This document shows, in pieces, positions 1 to 7,162 of a DNA stretch of 17,548 nucleotides; within the stretch, counting starts at the first letter, position 1, and each line of letters starts with the position of its first letter. Both the position numbers and the translations under genes were made by a program. Under the pieces are notes generated by a model that saw nothing but the letters and a program-made list of their open reading frames with translations, had not been told where the DNA came from and did not search any database. The DNA is from a phage, in NCBI GenBank assembly GCA_025289735.1, contig GCA_025289735.1_4764.3; one strand, 5' to 3'.

Positions 1-36
1 ATACTCGGAACTATAACTAATTTTTGAGGTTACTTT

Positions 37-1527
37 ATGGCAGATTTGAAACATGGATCTACTGTAGGCGGATCTCCCATTTGGACGCAAGGAAACTTGA
101 CGATCCAGCCAGCGGGGGATCAGCTTTTCTACAAAGGTCATAAAATCTATACCGCTTTTGATAAACCTTCGGCTGCCGATTTTGATGCTGTTAGTGCATC
201 CGAAGGTGGCACATTTCAAAAGCAAGTTCATTTCGAGGAAGGTTTAAGCGTAGGTAGCGCATCGGCTGGAGAAACCAAAAAGAACGGGATCTTTAAAGGA
301 AATAGTGATGCGGCTAACTTTGATGGTGTAAGTTGGGGTTTCCATTCGTGGAAATCTATTGGTTTTGTTAATGCTCGTGATGATGTTATCATGGCTTATA
401 TTGACACTACCACAGGTGATTTTAAAACTAAAGGGACTATCGAAGGGACAACCATTAAAGACACAGGTCAACGCGTCTATAGCCCTGTTAATAAACCAAC
501 GAATAATGATTTAGATTTGGTGTCTCGTCGCGGTGATACCCTCACAGGAACATATAATTTAAACACTGTCACTGTTAAACTATCGGTTGATTCGAAATTA
601 ATTGCAAGGGAACGTGATTTAATTAATTTTGATGCGACTAAGATCTATTATGGTAACGTTCTTGATACGTTGGTCTTCCGAAGTAAAGATGAGCCTACCA
701 TTTTTGTTAATGGCAGAGAAGGTCGTTTTTATCACACCAACAATAAACCAACTAAAGCCGATGTTGGGCTAGGCAATGTCACCAATGATGCACAGGTTAA
801 ACGTGCTGGTGATATTATGGTAGGTAACTTGCAAGCGCCTAGAATGTTGGCGACAAACGATCCTGCTGGTCCTAATGAATTGGTTCGTTTGAGCTACTTT
901 GAGAGAAAATCAATGGTAGCAAATCCAACCATCATTGGAAACGTTGATTGGAACACTCTTATTAATCGCGGTATCTATCGTGTGGAAAATGCTGGGTCAG
1001 GTACTAATAAACCGTCTGATAGCTATTATAACGGCGTTTTGATGGTATATCGCCCAGAAGATGCGGTCGGTACTCGTCGAATTGTTCAGGTGTATTATCC
1101 TGAATCTATTGACCATCCGATGTGCTGGCGTTCGTGTTCTAATGAATCATGGACTGCATGGAACTATGTAGATCACCGTAAATTGGCTGATATTCGCTAT
1201 GTTAACGTCACTGGCGATACCATGACAGGACCGTTAACTGTTCCGGCTGCAAACGGTGTTAGAACGGCTAGAGGTGCATATAATGGTGATAACTACTATG
1301 CCGGGTTAAATAGTGCTGACGGCACGGCTATGATTCACCGTATCAGCGATATTAAAGCCACTGAAAAATTGGGTATTACACATGATTCGAAAGCTGTTTT
1401 CGTTAAATCGCGTGGAAATACTCAAGCCACAGACCGCTATGAACTTTACCACGAAGGGCATAAACCTACCCCTGCCGAAGTTGGTGCGGTTCCACTTAAT
1501 GCGGTGATTGATTTTGGTACTTTCTAA
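37..1527 (+). CDS. 36: Long tail fiber protein, gp36-like (496 aa)
   Basis: ATG at 37 with GAGGT 7 nt upstream. N-terminus MADLKHGSTVGGSPIWTQGN resembles my recollection of the T4 gp36/gp37 N-terminal family. Repeated fibre-type motifs (VYSPVNKPTNNDLDL, FYHTNNKPTKADVGLGNV, YHEGHKPTPAEVGA). Sits immediately upstream of the gp37-like gene. Much longer than T4 gp36 (about 220 aa). Confidence 0.75.
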   Translation: MADLKHGSTVGGSPIWTQGNLTIQPAGDQLFYKGHKIYTAFDKPSAADFDAVSASEGGTFQKQVHFEEGLSVGSASAGETKKNGIFKGNSDAANFDGVSWGFHSWKSIGFVNARDDVIMAYIDTTTGDFKTKGTIEGTTIKDTGQRVYSPVNKPTNNDLDLVSRRGDTLTGTYNLNTVTVKLSVDSKLIARERDLINFDATKIYYGNVLDTLVFRSKDEPTIFVNGREGRFYHTNNKPTKADVGLGNVTNDAQVKRAGDIMVGNLQAPRMLATNDPAGPNELVRLSYFERKSMVANPTIIGNVDWNTLINRGIYRVENAGSGTNKPSDSYYNGVLMVYRPEDAVGTRRIVQVYYPESIDHPMCWRSCSNESWTAWNYVDHRKLADIRYVNVTGDTMTGPLTVPAANGVRTARGAYNGDNYYAGLNSADGTAMIHRISDIKATEKLGITHDSKAVFVKSRGNTQATDRYELYHEGHKPTPAEVGAVPLNAVIDFGTF

Positions 1528-1531
1528 TTTT

Positions 1532-1558
1532 AGCGGGGATTATCTCCCCGCTTTTCTA
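1532..1558 (+). terminator. Rho-independent terminator or attenuator after the gp36-like gene
   Basis: Hairpin AGCGGGGA-ttatc-TCCCCGCT directly followed by TTTTCT, 5 nt after the stop codon at 1525..1527. Confidence 0.6.
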
Positions 1559-1597
1559 AATAATATTATTCTAATAACCGTTTAAGGATTTTATAAA

Positions 1598-4500
1598 ATG
1601 GCAGATTTAAGCAGAATCCAATTTAAACGCACTAGCACTAAAGGTCGTAAACCTGATGCTAGTACGATGAATCCGGGGGAATTGGCAATCAACCTTGCGG
1701 ATCAATATCTTCTTACTAAAAATGATTCCGGTGCTATTATCAATTTAAGTTGTCCTCCGGTGTATGACCGCGATGTTACAATGGCGGGTAAGGTTAAAGG
1801 AAATAATTATATTTTAAGCAAAACCGCCAACTATCTGGAAGATCAGACAGCGCGAGATCTTAACTACTTTGGTGCTTTCCGTACCAATGGTCTTGATGGT
1901 TTTCTCGAACTAACGCTAAACGTTCCTCATTCTTCCGGTATTCAACATGGTCGAGGATTTACTTTCCAGTATGGACACCTTGGATCGCGTGTAGAAACTT
2001 ATGGTTATAATAAAGAAGGACAAAAAGCATTTAGTTATAAAATGTATCATGAAGGGGATAAACCAACTCCAGGAGAATTGAACGTCTATAGCAAACAAGA
2101 AGTAGATCGGATGTTCCAAAAGACACTTGATTTTGGAATTGAGTCCGGTTGGTTTAAAATCGCTACAGTATATCTACCACAACAATATGGGCGTAGTGCT
2201 AAAATTAGATTGGTTGGTGGTAATGGTTATAATGTAGGACAGACCGGGCAAGCTAATATTATTGAATTGGTTCTGCGTAGCGGGAATGGAAATCCGGTTG
2301 GTGTTGTGTTTAACGCTTATATGACCATCTGGTATATAGACCAGAAGTTTTGTGCTATTCCTACTGGTGGTGACTCTTATGATATATACGGTAGCTATTC
2401 CGGTCATACTGGATTTGTGTTGGCTGAATACCAGACTAGCCCTGACGTTAACCTGACTTTATATGATAACCCACAATTTATAGGAAGTCAATTACCGGAA
2501 GCTGAAACAAAGTTCGATGCTTATACAATCACTTCATTTAGTACTTATCGCAACCACGGGACATTAAATTTTGGTGCTAATTCTCAAGGCCAATATGACA
2601 TTGAGCATTTGAACGAACAACCGACAAATGCTAAAAAGATGTTGCGTCGCTTCCGTAGTTGTGCTCCTGCCACTATCTGGCATGAGACAGTTGATGATAA
2701 CCAGTATCGTCTTGCTACTGGATACGAAGATACAAATCAGGAATTATTGCTGACAGCAACATCCGGGTTACATGTCAAGAAATTAACATTGGATGGCGGT
2801 GTCACTGGAAATTCTGGTATTGATATTCGTCGAGGACCAAACGAAGCAAGCCATTTTAATTTTATGGATTATCGCACTGGACAAGATGTTCGTAATGGCT
2901 GGTTTGGCTTCGGTGATGGTCAGACCAAAGATTTTATTTGGTGGAACGATAACGGTCAAAACTCATTAAATCTTTTAGAAAACGGTGAATTACAGATTTC
3001 TGGTGGTAAAGGCCAGAAAATTGTAATGAATAGCGAAGTTGCATTATCTGAAAATGCTCGTTTGGCTGTTAGAGGTGGTAATTATGGCGTGATATTCCGT
3101 AATGATGGAACGAACTTTCATCTGCTTACTACCGATTTAAAAGATTCTTTTGGAAATTGGAATAATCGTAGACCATTTAGTTATGACTTTGCCGAAGGTG
3201 GATTGGATCTAGGTGGCACAACGACCGCACGTTGTTTGCATCTGGGAATTGATGGTAGTACCCGTATCGAGGATAACTTAGTTTTCAGGGCGGGATCTCG
3301 TCAATCAATGGACTACTTAGAATTTGTTCATTGGGGGGCAAGTAATACCGGACGTAATAACGTTTTAAGTCTTCGTGACTCAAAAGGATTTTTAGCAGAA
3401 TTTGAACGTAAAGGTGATAACACCATTCAAAATACATTCTTCGGAAGATTTAAAGTCAATGGTGGTTCTAACGCTATTACCGTTAATGCTCCTACTGATT
3501 CCGAGTCTGTTTATGTGAAAGGTACTTGTAACGATGTAGATAACTGGTATATAGGTAAAGGTGGTGCTGATAATGCATTAGCCTTTTATAGCTATAAGTC
3601 TAATGCGGCTATTTATCTCACAAATAATGGTGAGGTTTTATTAGCCCCACAAAACACCGCAATTGTTAACGTCAATCGCGACCGTATACACATCAACGGT
3701 ACACAGTGGGTGGCAAATCAGCCACATGGCTGGGGTAATCAGTGGCTGTCCGAAGCGCCTATATTCGTTGATTTTGGTACTGGTATTCCAAATGATACCT
3801 ATATGCCAATCATTAAAGCCCGTAGCCAAATTACTGGCGGTTATGCAACTAAGGCCGATTTTGGTATATATCGTCATGGTACTGATACTTGGGGTGATGC
3901 TGTTATTCGTGTCGGTTCTGCCGAAAGTGGTGATAGTAATCATCCAAACGCAATTTATACTTTCCGGGCAAATGGCGATTTTAAAGCTCCGGCTGGCCTC
4001 CGTGCTGGTGTTAACTTGGGTGTTGGTACTGATCCTGTATTGGGTGGACATTCTATTGCTATCGGTGATAATGACACTGGCTTAGTGTGGGGTGGTGATG
4101 GTCGTATTAACATGTTTGCTAACGGACAGCATATTGCATCATGGGGTACGATGTATCAAGAACACTCAGGACTATGGGGAAGTCATGGTGGTTTGTGGAC
4201 AGAAGTCGATAAAGCGATTATTTCTCATGGTCATCTAGTCCAGGCGAATGACAACTATTCTACATATGTTCGTGACATTTATATCCGTTCGGATATTCGC
4301 GTGAAGAAAGACCTAGTTAAATTTGAAAATGCATCTAAGACACTTTCAAAAATTAACGGTTACAAATATCTTCAAAAGCGCGGGACCAATGAAGACGGTA
4401 GCGAACGTTGGGAAGAAAACGCTGGTTTGATTGCTCAGGAAGTTCAAGCTATTTTGCCGGAATTGGTTGAAGGCGATCCAGATAGCGAAAACCTTCTTCG

Positions 4501-4636
4501 TTTGAACTATAACGGTGTTATTGGTTTAAATACTGCGGCAATCAACGAACACACCGAAGAAATTGCACTTCTTAAAGAAGAAAATAAACTTCTTCGTGAT
4601 CGTCTTGCTGCAATTGAAGCAAAATTATTTGGTTAA
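1598..4636 (+). CDS. 37: Long tail fiber distal subunit, gp37-like (1012 aa), with C-terminal intramolecular chaperone domain
   Basis: ATG at 1598 with AAGGA upstream. N-terminus MADLSRIQFKRTSTKGRKPDASTMNPGELAINLADQYLLTKNDSGAIINL parallels recalled T4 gp37 (MATLKQIQFKR...GELAINL...TKDDSGNIIDL). Length matches T4 gp37 (about 1026 aa). Gly/Asn/Thr-rich fibre composition. C-terminal about 114 aa begin with the S-D-x-R-x-K motif. Confidence 0.9.
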   Translation: MADLSRIQFKRTSTKGRKPDASTMNPGELAINLADQYLLTKNDSGAIINLSCPPVYDRDVTMAGKVKGNNYILSKTANYLEDQTARDLNYFGAFRTNGLDGFLELTLNVPHSSGIQHGRGFTFQYGHLGSRVETYGYNKEGQKAFSYKMYHEGDKPTPGELNVYSKQEVDRMFQKTLDFGIESGWFKIATVYLPQQYGRSAKIRLVGGNGYNVGQTGQANIIELVLRSGNGNPVGVVFNAYMTIWYIDQKFCAIPTGGDSYDIYGSYSGHTGFVLAEYQTSPDVNLTLYDNPQFIGSQLPEAETKFDAYTITSFSTYRNHGTLNFGANSQGQYDIEHLNEQPTNAKKMLRRFRSCAPATIWHETVDDNQYRLATGYEDTNQELLLTATSGLHVKKLTLDGGVTGNSGIDIRRGPNEASHFNFMDYRTGQDVRNGWFGFGDGQTKDFIWWNDNGQNSLNLLENGELQISGGKGQKIVMNSEVALSENARLAVRGGNYGVIFRNDGTNFHLLTTDLKDSFGNWNNRRPFSYDFAEGGLDLGGTTTARCLHLGIDGSTRIEDNLVFRAGSRQSMDYLEFVHWGASNTGRNNVLSLRDSKGFLAEFERKGDNTIQNTFFGRFKVNGGSNAITVNAPTDSESVYVKGTCNDVDNWYIGKGGADNALAFYSYKSNAAIYLTNNGEVLLAPQNTAIVNVNRDRIHINGTQWVANQPHGWGNQWLSEAPIFVDFGTGIPNDTYMPIIKARSQITGGYATKADFGIYRHGTDTWGDAVIRVGSAESGDSNHPNAIYTFRANGDFKAPAGLRAGVNLGVGTDPVLGGHSIAIGDNDTGLVWGGDGRINMFANGQHIASWGTMYQEHSGLWGSHGGLWTEVDKAIISHGHLVQANDNYSTYVRDIYIRSDIRVKKDLVKFENASKTLSKINGYKYLQKRGTNEDGSERWEENAGLIAQEVQAILPELVEGDPDSENLLRLNYNGVIGLNTAAINEHTEEIALLKEENKLLRDRLAAIEAKLFG
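4292..4633 (+). other. Predicted C-terminal intramolecular chaperone domain of gp37 (peptidase S74-like), putative autocleavage after Ser898
   Basis: Sequence ...YIRS|DIRVKKDLVKFENASKTLSKINGYKYL...LLKEENKLLRDRLAAIEAKLFG. The S-D-x-R-x-K start and coiled-coil C-terminal tail match the pattern I recall for endosialidase / T5 pb1-type self-cleaving chaperone domains. Confidence 0.6.
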
Positions 4637-4644
4637 TTTAAATG

Positions 4645-4662
4645 GCGGGGAGAAATCCCCGC
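4645..4662 (+). other. Stable stem-loop (GCGGGGA-GAAA-TCCCCGC) between gp37 and the downstream gene, no U-tract
   Basis: 7-bp GC-rich stem with a GNRA-type GAAA tetraloop 9 nt after the gp37 stop. Followed by TAAGGATCTT (the RBS of the next gene) rather than a T-run, so more likely an RNA stability or processing element than a terminator. Confidence 0.5.
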
Positions 4663-4674
4663 TAAGGATCTTAA

Positions 4675-4971
4675 ATGGGCTATTGGGTAAGTAATGAACA
4701 AGACACTAAAATAGATGCTGTAAAATGGCATGTTTTTGATATTCCTAATGGATATGTTCCCGGTCGTGCTGGTGTTGCCGTTTTGCGGCATACCGCTCGT
4801 GATGGTTGGGGCGATATGCATATTTCCGTTGACGGTGTGGTCGCCGCGCGTCGTCGTGGTGGTGGGGATTGGGGATTTACGGTTAATGCGTTTGTTCCTG
4901 CTGGATGTACTGTCACCTTTGGTCATGGGGGTGTCGGTGGTATTGAATACTTTAAATTTATGGAGTTTTAA
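4675..4971 (+). CDS. Small Gly/Trp-rich protein, paralog A of a tandem triplet (98 aa)
   Basis: ATG with AAGGA 6 nt upstream. Shares MGYWV...FDIPNG...GGGD...G-T-T pattern with the two downstream ORFs. Confidence 0.65.
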   Translation: MGYWVSNEQDTKIDAVKWHVFDIPNGYVPGRAGVAVLRHTARDGWGDMHISVDGVVAARRRGGGDWGFTVNAFVPAGCTVTFGHGGVGGIEYFKFMEF

Positions 4972-4973
4972 TT

Positions 4974-5279
4974 ATGGCTGGTTGGGTTGCTGGAAGAATG
5001 GCTAATGCTATTAGCATTTATGCTAATGGCGGCTGGTTTGGTATCCCTAATGGTTGGGTTACTGATTCATGCGGTATTGTGTCTGTTCATGCCGAAGCCG
5101 TTGGCGGTGGAGGTGACTTGGACGCCGAATTATATGTAAACGGTACTCTAGAATCAGGTCATCACGCTGGTAATGCCGGAAGTTGGGGAGCTAGTTCTTT
5201 AGTTGGTGTTGGTGCTACTGTCAGTTTTAGCATTGGTAAAGGAAGTTTAAACCACTTCCAATTTAGGAGAATGCATTAA
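4974..5279 (+). CDS. Small Gly/Trp-rich protein, paralog B of a tandem triplet (101 aa)
   Basis: ATG 2 nt after the stop of paralog A, GGAG 8 nt upstream. Motifs GWFGIPNGW and GGGGD shared with paralogs A and C. Confidence 0.65.
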   Translation: MAGWVAGRMANAISIYANGGWFGIPNGWVTDSCGIVSVHAEAVGGGGDLDAELYVNGTLESGHHAGNAGSWGASSLVGVGATVSFSIGKGSLNHFQFRRMH

Positions 5280-5578
5280 TGGGATATTGGGTGTATGGCG
5301 TTTTAGACAATAAAGCCGGTAAAGCGAATCAGGGATGGTTTGATATTCCTAACGGTTGGACAGCCGACGCTTTCGGTACGGTTTCATTTGGTGCTCATTC
5401 TTCTGGTGGTGGTGGTGACTCAGAATTGCTTTTGCATGGCTTTTGTGTGTCTGGAAGTCATAAGGGTCATGATTGGGGACAGATCCATTCTTGTATTGTG
5501 CCGCAGGGAGTAACGATCACGGTAACTACAAACAGGGGCATTTCCCATCTTCGTTATAGACGCCAGAGCAACCGTTAA
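5279..5578 (+). CDS. Small Gly/Trp-rich protein, paralog C of a tandem triplet (99 aa)
   Basis: Start overlaps the stop of paralog B (TAATG). AGGAGA 8 nt upstream. Motifs MGYWV, GWFDIPNGW, GGGGD. Confidence 0.65.
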   Translation: MGYWVYGVLDNKAGKANQGWFDIPNGWTADAFGTVSFGAHSSGGGGDSELLLHGFCVSGSHKGHDWGQIHSCIVPQGVTITVTTNRGISHLRYRRQSNR

Positions 5579-5629
5579 AAAGAATTAAGGAAACCTCCCA
5601 CGGAAGGGAACTACTAAGGAGAAACGGCT

Positions 5630-5869
5630 ATGGTCTATAATATCGTCATTGGTGCTTTGTCTAATTTCGGAATGAAACTATTGTCAAAGTTAATTAGTGA
5701 AAAGATGCTCACTAAAATCTTCTTCTATTGCGCTCGTCGTCTTGCGGCTTATACCAATACGCCAATTGATGATCGTTTTGTGGAAGAACTTTATAAGGAG
5801 TTTAATAAAGATCAGTTAGAAGATAGCAACGAGCAAAATAAAAATAGTGATAGTCAAGTACCTAAATAA
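5630..5869 (+). CDS. Hypothetical protein (79 aa) between the fibre module and the holin
   Basis: ATG with AAGGAG 8 nt upstream. Hydrophobic/amphipathic N-terminus and acidic, low-complexity C-terminus. No family recognised. Confidence 0.5.
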   Translation: MVYNIVIGALSNFGMKLLSKLISEKMLTKIFFYCARRLAAYTNTPIDDRFVEELYKEFNKDQLEDSNEQNKNSDSQVPK

Positions 5870-5902
5870 GAGTACACTGTCATAGTTATCTTAGGGCATT
5901 AT

Positions 5903-6559
5903 ATGCAAGTTTCTGAAAAAGGGAAAGACTTTGCTATCTCAAATGTCCTGCGCGCTATTTTCACAACTAAAAGCACGGAGTTGCTCGTACTTCGTGTTTT
6001 TGCTGCCGTCGTGTTGTCCATATTAGCATTTGTCGTTTATAGTAAAAACGAGTTATTTGCCTTGTATAAAGAGACTCGTTATGAGACTTATGCTCACGTT
6101 CTCCAGGTAGAGAAAGACCGCAATTTTGATAATGCAGCACAGGAGCAGTTACAGATAGTTCATGTGTCGGCTGATGCCGATTTTTCTGCTGTTTTTAGTT
6201 TTCGTCCGAAAAACCTAAACTATTTTGTTGATTTGGTGGCATATGAAGGAAAGCTACCGCATACAATCGATGAAAAAAATTTAGGTGGATTCCCTATCAA
6301 TAAAACGAGTGAAGAATATCGTAGGCATCTTTTAGGTAAATCATATTTTACCGATAAAGATTTCCAGTATATTCCATCAAGAGAAAAGAAATTAGAGAGT
6401 ATCGATATAGGGTTTATGTATTCTTGCCCTATATTCAATCTCGATAATGTCTATTCTGGTAGTATCGCCATTGCGTGGAAGAATAAACCGGATATTGACA
6501 TTGAGAATTTAGATACTCTTTGCAATCAATCTGCCAGAATCCTCGGAAGGATTAGATAA
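5903..6559 (+). CDS. t: Holin, T4 t-type (218 aa)
   Basis: Same length as T4 holin T. Single TMD (LVLRVFAAVVLSILAFVVY) after a short N-terminal region, then a large C-terminal domain. Several blocks match my recollection of T4 T: EQLQIVH, ADFSAVxSFRPKNLNYFVD, AYEGKLP, MYSCPxFNLDNxYxG, ARILGR. Confidence 0.9.
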   Translation: MQVSEKGKDFAISNVLRAIFTTKSTELLVLRVFAAVVLSILAFVVYSKNELFALYKETRYETYAHVLQVEKDRNFDNAAQEQLQIVHVSADADFSAVFSFRPKNLNYFVDLVAYEGKLPHTIDEKNLGGFPINKTSEEYRRHLLGKSYFTDKDFQYIPSREKKLESIDIGFMYSCPIFNLDNVYSGSIAIAWKNKPDIDIENLDTLCNQSARILGRIR

Positions 6560-6564
6560 CTTAA

Positions 6565-6597
6565 AGGGGAAGCCTTTCGGCCTCCCCTTCTTTTTAT
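6565..6597 (+). terminator. Rho-independent terminator after holin t
   Basis: 10-bp stem AGGGGAAGCC / GGCCTCCCCT (one mismatch), loop TTTC, followed by TCTTTTTA. Confidence 0.7.
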
Positions 6598-6842
6598 TGG
6601 AGCATAGAAGCCCCTGAATCACATTTTGACGCTGTATGATGAAAACAGGTAGCGTACCAGTCATCGGCTTGTTTGTCTTCGTCAGAAAACGCGTAATTGC
6701 GTTGTATGCCGTTTTCTACTTTGACCAGTGCAATAGCTGTTTCTGGAAGATCAATCAATCGGACAAAATCACCGTCTTCCCACTCCACACGGGCAATATC
6801 ATAGCCCATCTCAAAGTATACAATCGCTTGTTCTAATTTCAT
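6594..6842 (-). CDS. Hypothetical early protein (82 aa)
   Basis: ATG overlaps the upstream stop (ATGA). Last gene of the minus-strand array, ending at the t terminator. Confidence 0.5.
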   Translation of the reverse strand: MKLEQAIVYFEMGYDIARVEWEDGDFVRLIDLPETAIALVKVENGIQRNYAFSDEDKQADDWYATCFHHTASKCDSGASMLQ

Positions 6843-7162
6843 TCTGGAAACTTCCCGTAAACATTCTCTGCCAGCTTACGTGCATCTTTTACAATATCTT
6901 TCATGTAATGACTATAATTTTTAGCTAGATCAATGATGCAATCAACAAAGAAGTAATAGCGTCGCAGTGCTACCAGCTCAACATCTTCAAGATGACCATT
7001 TTCTCCAATCGCTGAAATATGTTTAAATTCCTTTCGGATCGCGTCCATCGCTACATTAACTTCTTTTATAATATCTTTCGTATTATATGCACCTCGACTA
7101 ATCAAAATTTTGGTTAGGTCTTCTGCTTTTTCGTGAAAGTTGTCAATTTCAAACTCGATCAT
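6839..7162 (-). CDS. Hypothetical early protein (107 aa), paralog of 7277..7609
   Basis: Track start at 7168 is a GTG lying inside the SD GAGGTGA. ATG at 7160..7162 with that SD 5 nt upstream is the likelier start. C-terminus ...ARKLAENVYGKFPE resembles the neighbour's ...ARIMTENIFGKF. Confidence 0.55.
   Translation of the reverse strand: MIEFEIDNFHEKAEDLTKILISRGAYNTKDIIKEVNVAMDAIRKEFKHISAIGENGHLEDVELVALRRYYFFVDCIIDLAKNYSHYMKDIVKDARKLAENVYGKFPE

Follow-up and report, generated by a model that had tools for sequence, protein, structure and literature searches.

Three co-inherited paralogs tied to self-cleaving phage tail fibres as a candidate heterotrimeric fibre-tip adhesin

Three small paralogous genes (A, B and C, or the trio) lie directly downstream of the long tail fibre gene of a Krischvirus phage, and the same A-B-C array follows fibre genes ending in a Peptidase_S74 chaperone in phages of three virion types. 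The trio is still best read as acting at the fibre tip, and we propose, with a confidence slightly short of an even chance, that A, B and C form a 1:1:1 heterotrimeric C1q-like knob capping the fibre tip as the distal adhesin. That the three proteins act together as one unit tied to S74 fibres stands on considerably firmer ground than this model as a whole. The host range of T-even-like phages is set at the fibre tip, for which two solutions are well described: gp37 itself in T4 and the monomeric gp38 adhesin in T2 and S16. Alongside these there may be a third, non-homologous one: three subunits inherited together and tied to the self-cleaving S74 fibres, which are widespread.

Three coupled genes in the gene-38 position

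The window, i.e. the whole stretch of 17,548 nucleotides analysed here, covers the tail-fibre and lysis genes of an RB49-like phage of the Straboviridae, genus Krischvirus (Table 1). The trio is flanked by gp37 on one side and by the phrog_402 ORF and holin t on the other, which is the gene-38 position, as an earlier note written from the sequence letters alone had recognized. The exact coordinates likewise confirmed the three closely coupled ORFs of 98, 101 and 99 aa described in that note. A starts 39 nt past the gp37 stop codon, the stop of A and the start of B are spaced by 2 nt (TAATTATG), the stop of B and the start of C overlap in TAATG, and each of the three genes has a Shine-Dalgarno sequence 7-9 nt upstream. 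The G+C-rich hairpin between gp37 and A is annotated as a putative terminator in phage G2248; a terminator scan flags it on the minus strand only, and the plus strand has no T-tract. It may act as an attenuator or an RNA-stability element setting the level of the trio relative to gp37. The late-promoter sequence TATAAATA, looked for ahead of the trio, is absent from positions 1-7000 of the window. A megablast search with positions 4600-5650 matched 55 phage records, whose names are almost all Escherichia, Shigella or Krischvirus; only three of the 55 span the full query, namely G2248 (94.5% nucleotide identity), UPWr_E1 (90.5%) and G37-3 (81%).

Table 1. Coordinates of the trio, its partner fibre and neighbouring features (positions in the window unless a contig is given)
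Feature	Position	Strand	Remarks
gp36	37-1527		first in the listed gene order
gp37, long tail fibre distal subunit, 1012 aa	1598-4636	+	phrog_1699 E 6e-163; Pfam Gp34_trimer, gp37_trimer, Peptidase_S74
Mature part of gp37 (predicted)	aa 1-897		intramolecular chaperone aa 898-1012
Mobile cassette of A, B, C and gp37 (from around codon 75 on)	1820-5579	+	91.8% nucleotide identity to E. coli prophage L009
D-I-Y-I-R codons, aa 893-897, last strand before the predicted autocleavage	4274-4288	+	motif position; alignment to DVYIR^SD
C-terminal intramolecular chaperone (Peptidase_S74), S-D-x-R-x-K	4289-4633	+	Pfam PF13884 E 5e-12, aa 898-957
G+C-rich hairpin GCGGGGA-GAAA-TCCCCGC	4645-4662		between gp37 and A; read from the sequence
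Paralog A, 98 aa	4675-4971	+	subfamily C-terminus ...EYFKFMEF
Paralog B, 101 aa	4974-5279	+	subfamily C-terminus ...F[QKR]F[RK]RM[HWQ]
Paralog C, 99 aa	5279-5578	+	subfamily C-terminus ...LRYRR[LQ]xx
phrog_402 ORF	5630-5869		downstream of C
Holin t	5903-6559		after the phrog_402 ORF
Fibre locus of G2494, S74 gp37 plus T2-type gp38	L016 2385-6002		DVYIR^SD

An old set of three paralogs under purifying selection

A, B and C proved to be mutual, strongly diverged paralogs as the earlier note had it, with BLASTP E-values of 4e-8 (A-B), 2e-12 (A-C) and 2e-19 (B-C) and Smith-Waterman z-scores of 10-23 (500 shuffles). The shared scaffold outlined there held for the N-terminal M-[GA]-x-W-V, the F-[DG]-I-P-N-G-[WY] block and the G-x-T-x-[TS] strand, which all three proteins carry, but not for the glycine-rich loop: in B and C, aa 43-47 form the GGGGD loop, opposite which A has DGWGD in the alignment, and the 'GGGD' of A (aa 62-65) falls into another alignment column. 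The FDIPNGW loop, G33, G54, VPxG and the last strand are kept across all three paralogs, whereas the N-terminal helix and the BC ('GGGGD'), DE and FG loops are variable. The strand order suggests that the sandwich presents its conserved loops at one end and its variable loops at the opposite end. In the Salmonella and T3-like lineages, B is extended at its N-terminus. No consistent pattern of charge complementarity was seen between A, B and C.

The dN/dS ratios among trio orthologs were 0.05-0.43 in 14 pairwise comparisons (0.05-0.25 for B), and A, B and C are therefore expressed, constrained genuine genes under purifying selection. In a neighbour-joining tree of 29 trio proteins, the proteins at positions 1, 2 and 3 formed three separate clades across all lineages, with clade signatures in the C-terminal strand (...FKFMEF for A, ...F[RK]RM for B and ...RYRR for C). 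The triplication must therefore predate all of this divergence. Each paralog has kept a signature of its own, as three non-redundant subunits would, whereas an array that diversified recently would not be expected to show this.

Family identity and predicted fold

Pfam assigned A, B and C to no family at E<=1, C1q/TNF and fibre-chaperone families included, and NCBIfam gave no match. The one match in PHROGs was weak (A aa 44-91 against aa 284-332 of the 338 of phrog_18834, a family of unknown function, E 7e-4), in keeping with the unrecognised family reported earlier; phrog_18834 may be fibre-like and carry, covalently attached, a domain of trio-like fold. A PDB profile search with the trio returned spurious matches only and no solved homolog, and the parts of the literature available to us contained no paper that appeared to treat these genes and no described family. 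The earlier note had also considered that the ORFs might turn out to be fragments of a gp38-type adhesin or of gp37. Neither relation was found, as hhalign gave a probability of 0.15% (E 0.4) for the family profile A3 against the gp38 of G2494 and of 0.45% for A3 against the gp37 of the window. The G-V-P-G-W and G-V-P-C-W motifs of gp38 resemble the D-I-P-N-G-W of the trio, a very short motif that we regard as a lead only.

The AF2 models of C (pLDDT 83.7) and A (pLDDT 85.0) consist of a short N-terminal helix followed by a 7-8-stranded beta-sandwich. In structure searches, about half of the top 60 matches of each model were trimeric jelly rolls of the C1q/TNF family, among them C1QL1, C1q A and C, collagen VIII NC1, adiponectin, cerebellin, many TNF ligands and the heterotrimeric lymphotoxin; other matches were BclA, PRD1 P5, a podophage needle knob and a Bdellovibrio fibre tip. 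Among the BFVD viral models, the Foldseek matches comprise, inter alia, proteins that carry the names of phage tail fibres, collagen-repeat proteins and C1q-domain proteins. Both models display a compact antiparallel jelly roll superposable on gC1q/TNF domains. Their assignment to a trimer-forming fold is likely, though not exclusive, since carbohydrate-binding modules and XepA/YomS score similarly. A C1q/TNF-like jelly roll typically forms trimers, and the existence of exactly three conserved paralog clades lends indirect support to a putative trimeric assembly of the trio.

Distribution and genomic contexts

By tblastn against 50,697 phage records, trio proteins were found in only four distinct phages (five records), all Krischvirus, with KFS-EC and its decayed copy among them. 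A word-indexed search of 5.8 billion proteins gave 45 matching clusters, all of small proteins, mostly of 96-131 aa with a few shorter fragments, whose source names are E. coli, Shigella or Salmonella. The exhaustive HMM search of 1.84 billion representatives returned 19 matches, about 15 of which are true representatives; the other four (P0055, P0058, P0061 and P0062) are long proteins with NHL, ankyrin or Ig repeats and were rejected as artefacts. Furthermore, 24 of 5,426 complete E. coli genomes carry the trio, chromosomal every time, and IMG/VR has it at nine loci among its 2.9 million contigs. In the annotated records listed and in the source names, its members are labelled only 'hypothetical protein', so receptor-prediction pipelines currently ignore them.

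At every locus examined, covering about nine lineages, a fibre gene ending in Peptidase_S74 is followed by A, B and C in this order, and no intact array of another copy number or order was seen among these loci. The trio adjoins gp37 in the Krischvirus carriers. The E. coli carriers are siphovirus-type prophages of about 35 kb, in which fibre and trio are located between the gene for a 277-aa protein and the tail-tube gene; an example is the prophage of strain BS74R-D (NZ_CP063332, 15-44 kb). Two types of Salmonella prophage carry the trio, and in one of them paralog C had been overlooked by the gene caller of the source. On the contig of a T3-like podovirus (L017), the trio accompanies a fibre with an N-terminal Phage_T7_tail domain, 60% identical to T3 gp17, and a C-terminal S74 domain. 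Further metagenome contigs with an S74 fibre followed by A-B-C are L019, L020, L021 and L032/33. This strict link to S74 fibres outside the T4-like phages goes beyond the earlier note, as does the mobility of the cassette described below.

We also noticed that the fibres of prophages L005-L014, L022 and L034 are 1030-1230 aa in length, about 285 aa of which make up a long N-terminal region, and that their genes lie between head-completion and tail-tube genes, an unusual place. A NUMOD3-domain, homing-endonuclease-like ORF is present among the tail genes of L009 (14094-14867) and L022 (19976-20749), and some E. coli prophages are devoid of it. In two proteins (P0038 and P0044), MVYNIVIGA, with which the phrog_402 ORF of Krischvirus starts (cf. 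positions 5630-5656), is joined to the last 60 aa of C; they appear to be a second kind of scar, left by deletion or recombination, at the trio locus. The first kind is seen in KFS-EC, a viable isolate with a decayed trio (L003 5746-6250), where A, lacking its last strand, is fused via a glycine-codon repeat to the middle of C, which is left as a frameshifted remnant, and B is deleted. The gp37 tip of KFS-EC resembles the tip of the gp38-carrying G2494.

The three proteins could instead form three separate homotrimers, serving as alternative tip adhesins or decorations, the roles considered in the earlier note, with up to three specificities per phage. The C1q/TNF fold is more often homo- than heterotrimeric in our lists of structure matches, and the loops differ strongly between A, B and C, as such a model would have it. 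Homotrimers, however, predict variation in copy number and order as well as gain or loss of single members, whereas every intact array is A-B-C and composed of three ancient clades, and the tight 1:1:1 coupling suits a single complex better. We consider separate homotrimers quite unlikely. The 'diversifying triplet' of the earlier note likewise had to be given up: the triplication is ancient, and its three orthologous clades keep a fixed order in myo-, sipho- and podovirus contexts under purifying selection, a pattern that favours one three-subunit unit over three alternative adhesins.

The fibre and the trio travel as one cassette

Positions 1820-5579 of the window share 90-92% nucleotide identity with siphovirus-type prophages of E. 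coli (L009 5124-8908 and L022 11359-14908), and aa 71-1012 of gp37 are 89% identical to the fibre of prophage L009. In comparison with Phi1, a relative with no trio, the replaced block extends over 2115-5575, and its right junction is the stop codon of C. The identity over the cassette and the end of the block at this stop codon indicate that fibre and trio travel together between temperate siphoviruses and virulent myoviruses. Judged from the sequence, temperate and virulent phages seem to have exchanged an entire fibre cassette recently. A cassette 92% identical at the nucleotide level between a virulent Krischvirus and E. coli prophages would be a clear recent swap of receptor-binding hardware across morphotypes.

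One might argue that the trio merely hitch-hikes with the fibre gene and has a non-fibre function, such as superinfection exclusion, receptor masking or that of a lysis-linked exported factor like PBSX XepA and YomS. The genomic contexts speak against this explanation, because the trio sits next to S74 fibres in three virion types and, in the prophages, lies between the fibre and tail-tube genes, distant from the lysis genes. Nor is a hydrophobic, signal-like N-terminal stretch visible by eye in the sequences of A, B and C. A passenger function is thus very unlikely in our estimate, and we continue with the fibre-tip reading.

The partner fibre and its S74 chaperone

The gp37 of the window does bring its own C-terminal chaperone, as stated earlier (Pfam Peptidase_S74, aa 898-957), with a predicted cleavage at R897^S898 in the motif IYIR^SDIRVKK (aa 894-904). 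The RSD..K motif is kept in all trio-linked fibres, which also retain D[VI]Y[I]R^SD; DVYIR^SD is found in G2494 and Phi1 as well. Apart from this, the carrier fibres are mosaics with at least three types of distal domain and two divergent chaperone types, and what all carriers have in common in their fibres is confined to the S74 chaperone and the D[VI]Y[I]R-like strand ahead of it. No fibre segment proved specific to trio carriers; Phi1, which has no trio, shares one of the distal-domain types. Identical A proteins are paired with different fibre tips, and the trio does not co-vary with the tip sequence. Within Krischvirus, at least three tip configurations occur at one locus: S74 gp37 alone (Phi1, L015), S74 gp37 with a T2-type gp38 (G2494), and S74 gp37 with the trio.

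The earlier note had reasoned that a fibre with its own chaperone makes gp38 dispensable. This holds for the chaperone-type gp38 of T4 but does not apply to the T2/S16-type gp38, which coexists with a chaperone-carrying gp37 and docks after its cleavage (PMC7917993); G2494 carries the same combination. In the S16 and fPS phages, chaperone cleavage exposes a flat triangular face made of three copies of a strand such as DVYIR, into which conserved tryptophans of the separately encoded gp38 insert (PMC7917993).

Another explanation is that the trio encodes non-virion maturation factors for S74 fibres, assisting the folding of the distal domain or controlling or capturing the released chaperone in the manner of T4 gp38 or Tfa. 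The chaperone with its cleavage strand as the only common feature of the partner fibres, the absence of tracking between trio and tip sequences, and the gene-38 slot, which encodes a chaperone in T4, are all compatible with such a role. On the other hand, S74 fibres fold helper-free in many phages, including Phi1 with its homologous distal domain, and KFS-EC is viable despite its decayed trio. The predicted trio fold resembles distal knobs and lectin domains, unlike known fibre chaperones, and the trio matches nothing in Pfam and hence no chaperone family there. Taken together, we regard a maturation role as unlikely, and retain the tip adhesin as the preferred reading.

A heterotrimeric knob as a model for the fibre tip

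Our model rests on several observations. We favour a single complex because the A-B-C order after an S74 fibre is fixed at all loci of the roughly nine lineages, and because the three position clades, the translational coupling and dN/dS values below 0.45 point to the same unit. We favour a knob because the models of A and C independently retrieve C1q/TNF folds, knobs and fibre-like proteins, and because conserved positions (the FDIPNGW loop and others) are partitioned from variable ones (the helix and the alternate loops). The right boundary of the cassette, which coincides exactly with the stop codon of C, also counts in favour of the model. Docking on the processed fibre end is suggested by the precedent of the S16 and fPS phages, by the retention of D[VI]Y[I]R^SD in trio-linked fibres and by the occurrence of this strand together with gp38 in G2494.

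According to this model, gp37 would trimerize with the aid of its C-terminal S74 chaperone, which would then cleave itself off at R897^S898. The exposed flat end with its three D-I-Y-I-R strands would become a docking face, by analogy with gp38 systems. Translational coupling would supply equal amounts of A, B and C, three non-redundant subunits that most likely assemble into a pseudo-threefold heterotrimer of jelly rolls. The trio would dock via elements conserved in all of its chains, W4 and/or the F-D-I-P-N-G-W loop, so that one conserved aromatic element per trio chain could contact one of the three equivalent fibre chains. The receptor would be bound by an asymmetric surface composed of the variable parts, namely the N-terminal helix and the BC, DE and FG loops, and the trio would functionally stand in for the monomeric T2/S16-type gp38 adhesin. 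We infer the stoichiometry of the heterotrimer, its presence in the virion, its docking site and its receptor binding from these considerations. Three observations count against the model: Phi1 has the same strand and neither trio nor gp38, KFS-EC survives with a decayed trio, and the sequences of trio and tip show no covariation.

If the model is correct, the trio would offer a new module for host-range engineering and a natural case of a symmetric trimer presenting an asymmetric binding surface, and phages may have gained a portable new means of host choice. In its boldest form, the model would give phages a receptor-binding tip without precedent among them, an obligate heterotrimer of three separately encoded C1q/TNF-like chains, asymmetric itself, docking on a symmetric autocleaved end, and portable with its fibre among virulent myoviruses, temperate siphoviruses and T3-like podoviruses. 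We advance this stronger claim tentatively and think it somewhat doubtful.

Comparison with known systems

A close parallel is the T2/S16-type gp38. Like gp38, the trio follows directly on the gene of a gp37 whose S74 chaperone can be cleaved off, is glycine-rich with variable loops, and occupies the same Krischvirus slot (gp38 in G2494, the trio in the window). gp38 is a monomer of about 265 aa with a polyglycine sandwich, a conserved N-terminal attachment domain and glycine-rich motifs that alternate with hypervariable segments, whereas the three chains of the trio have about 100 aa each and a jelly-roll fold as predicted. The trio has no detectable sequence relation to gp38 by hhalign, and its docking is only proposed. 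With T4 gp38 and the Tfa proteins of lambda and Mu, the trio shares the small size of its members and their place just past the fibre gene; in contrast to those, its partner fibres bring their own chaperone, and it matches no fibre-chaperone profile.

Compared with the heads of C1q (A/B/C) and other heterotrimeric members of the C1q/TNF family such as lymphotoxin a1b2, the trio has only 5-12% identity, is shorter (7-8 strands in about 100 aa instead of 10 strands in about 130 aa), lacks the collagen stalk of C1q, and forms a trimer only putatively. PRD1 P5, podophage needle knobs and collagen-repeat fibre proteins belong to the same predicted fold class, but knobs of the P5 type are homotrimeric and reside within the fibre polypeptide, whereas the trio comprises three free-standing gene products. 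Accessory adhesins on processed fibres are already known; what sets the trio apart is its non-homologous fold, as predicted by the models, and its three-gene architecture.
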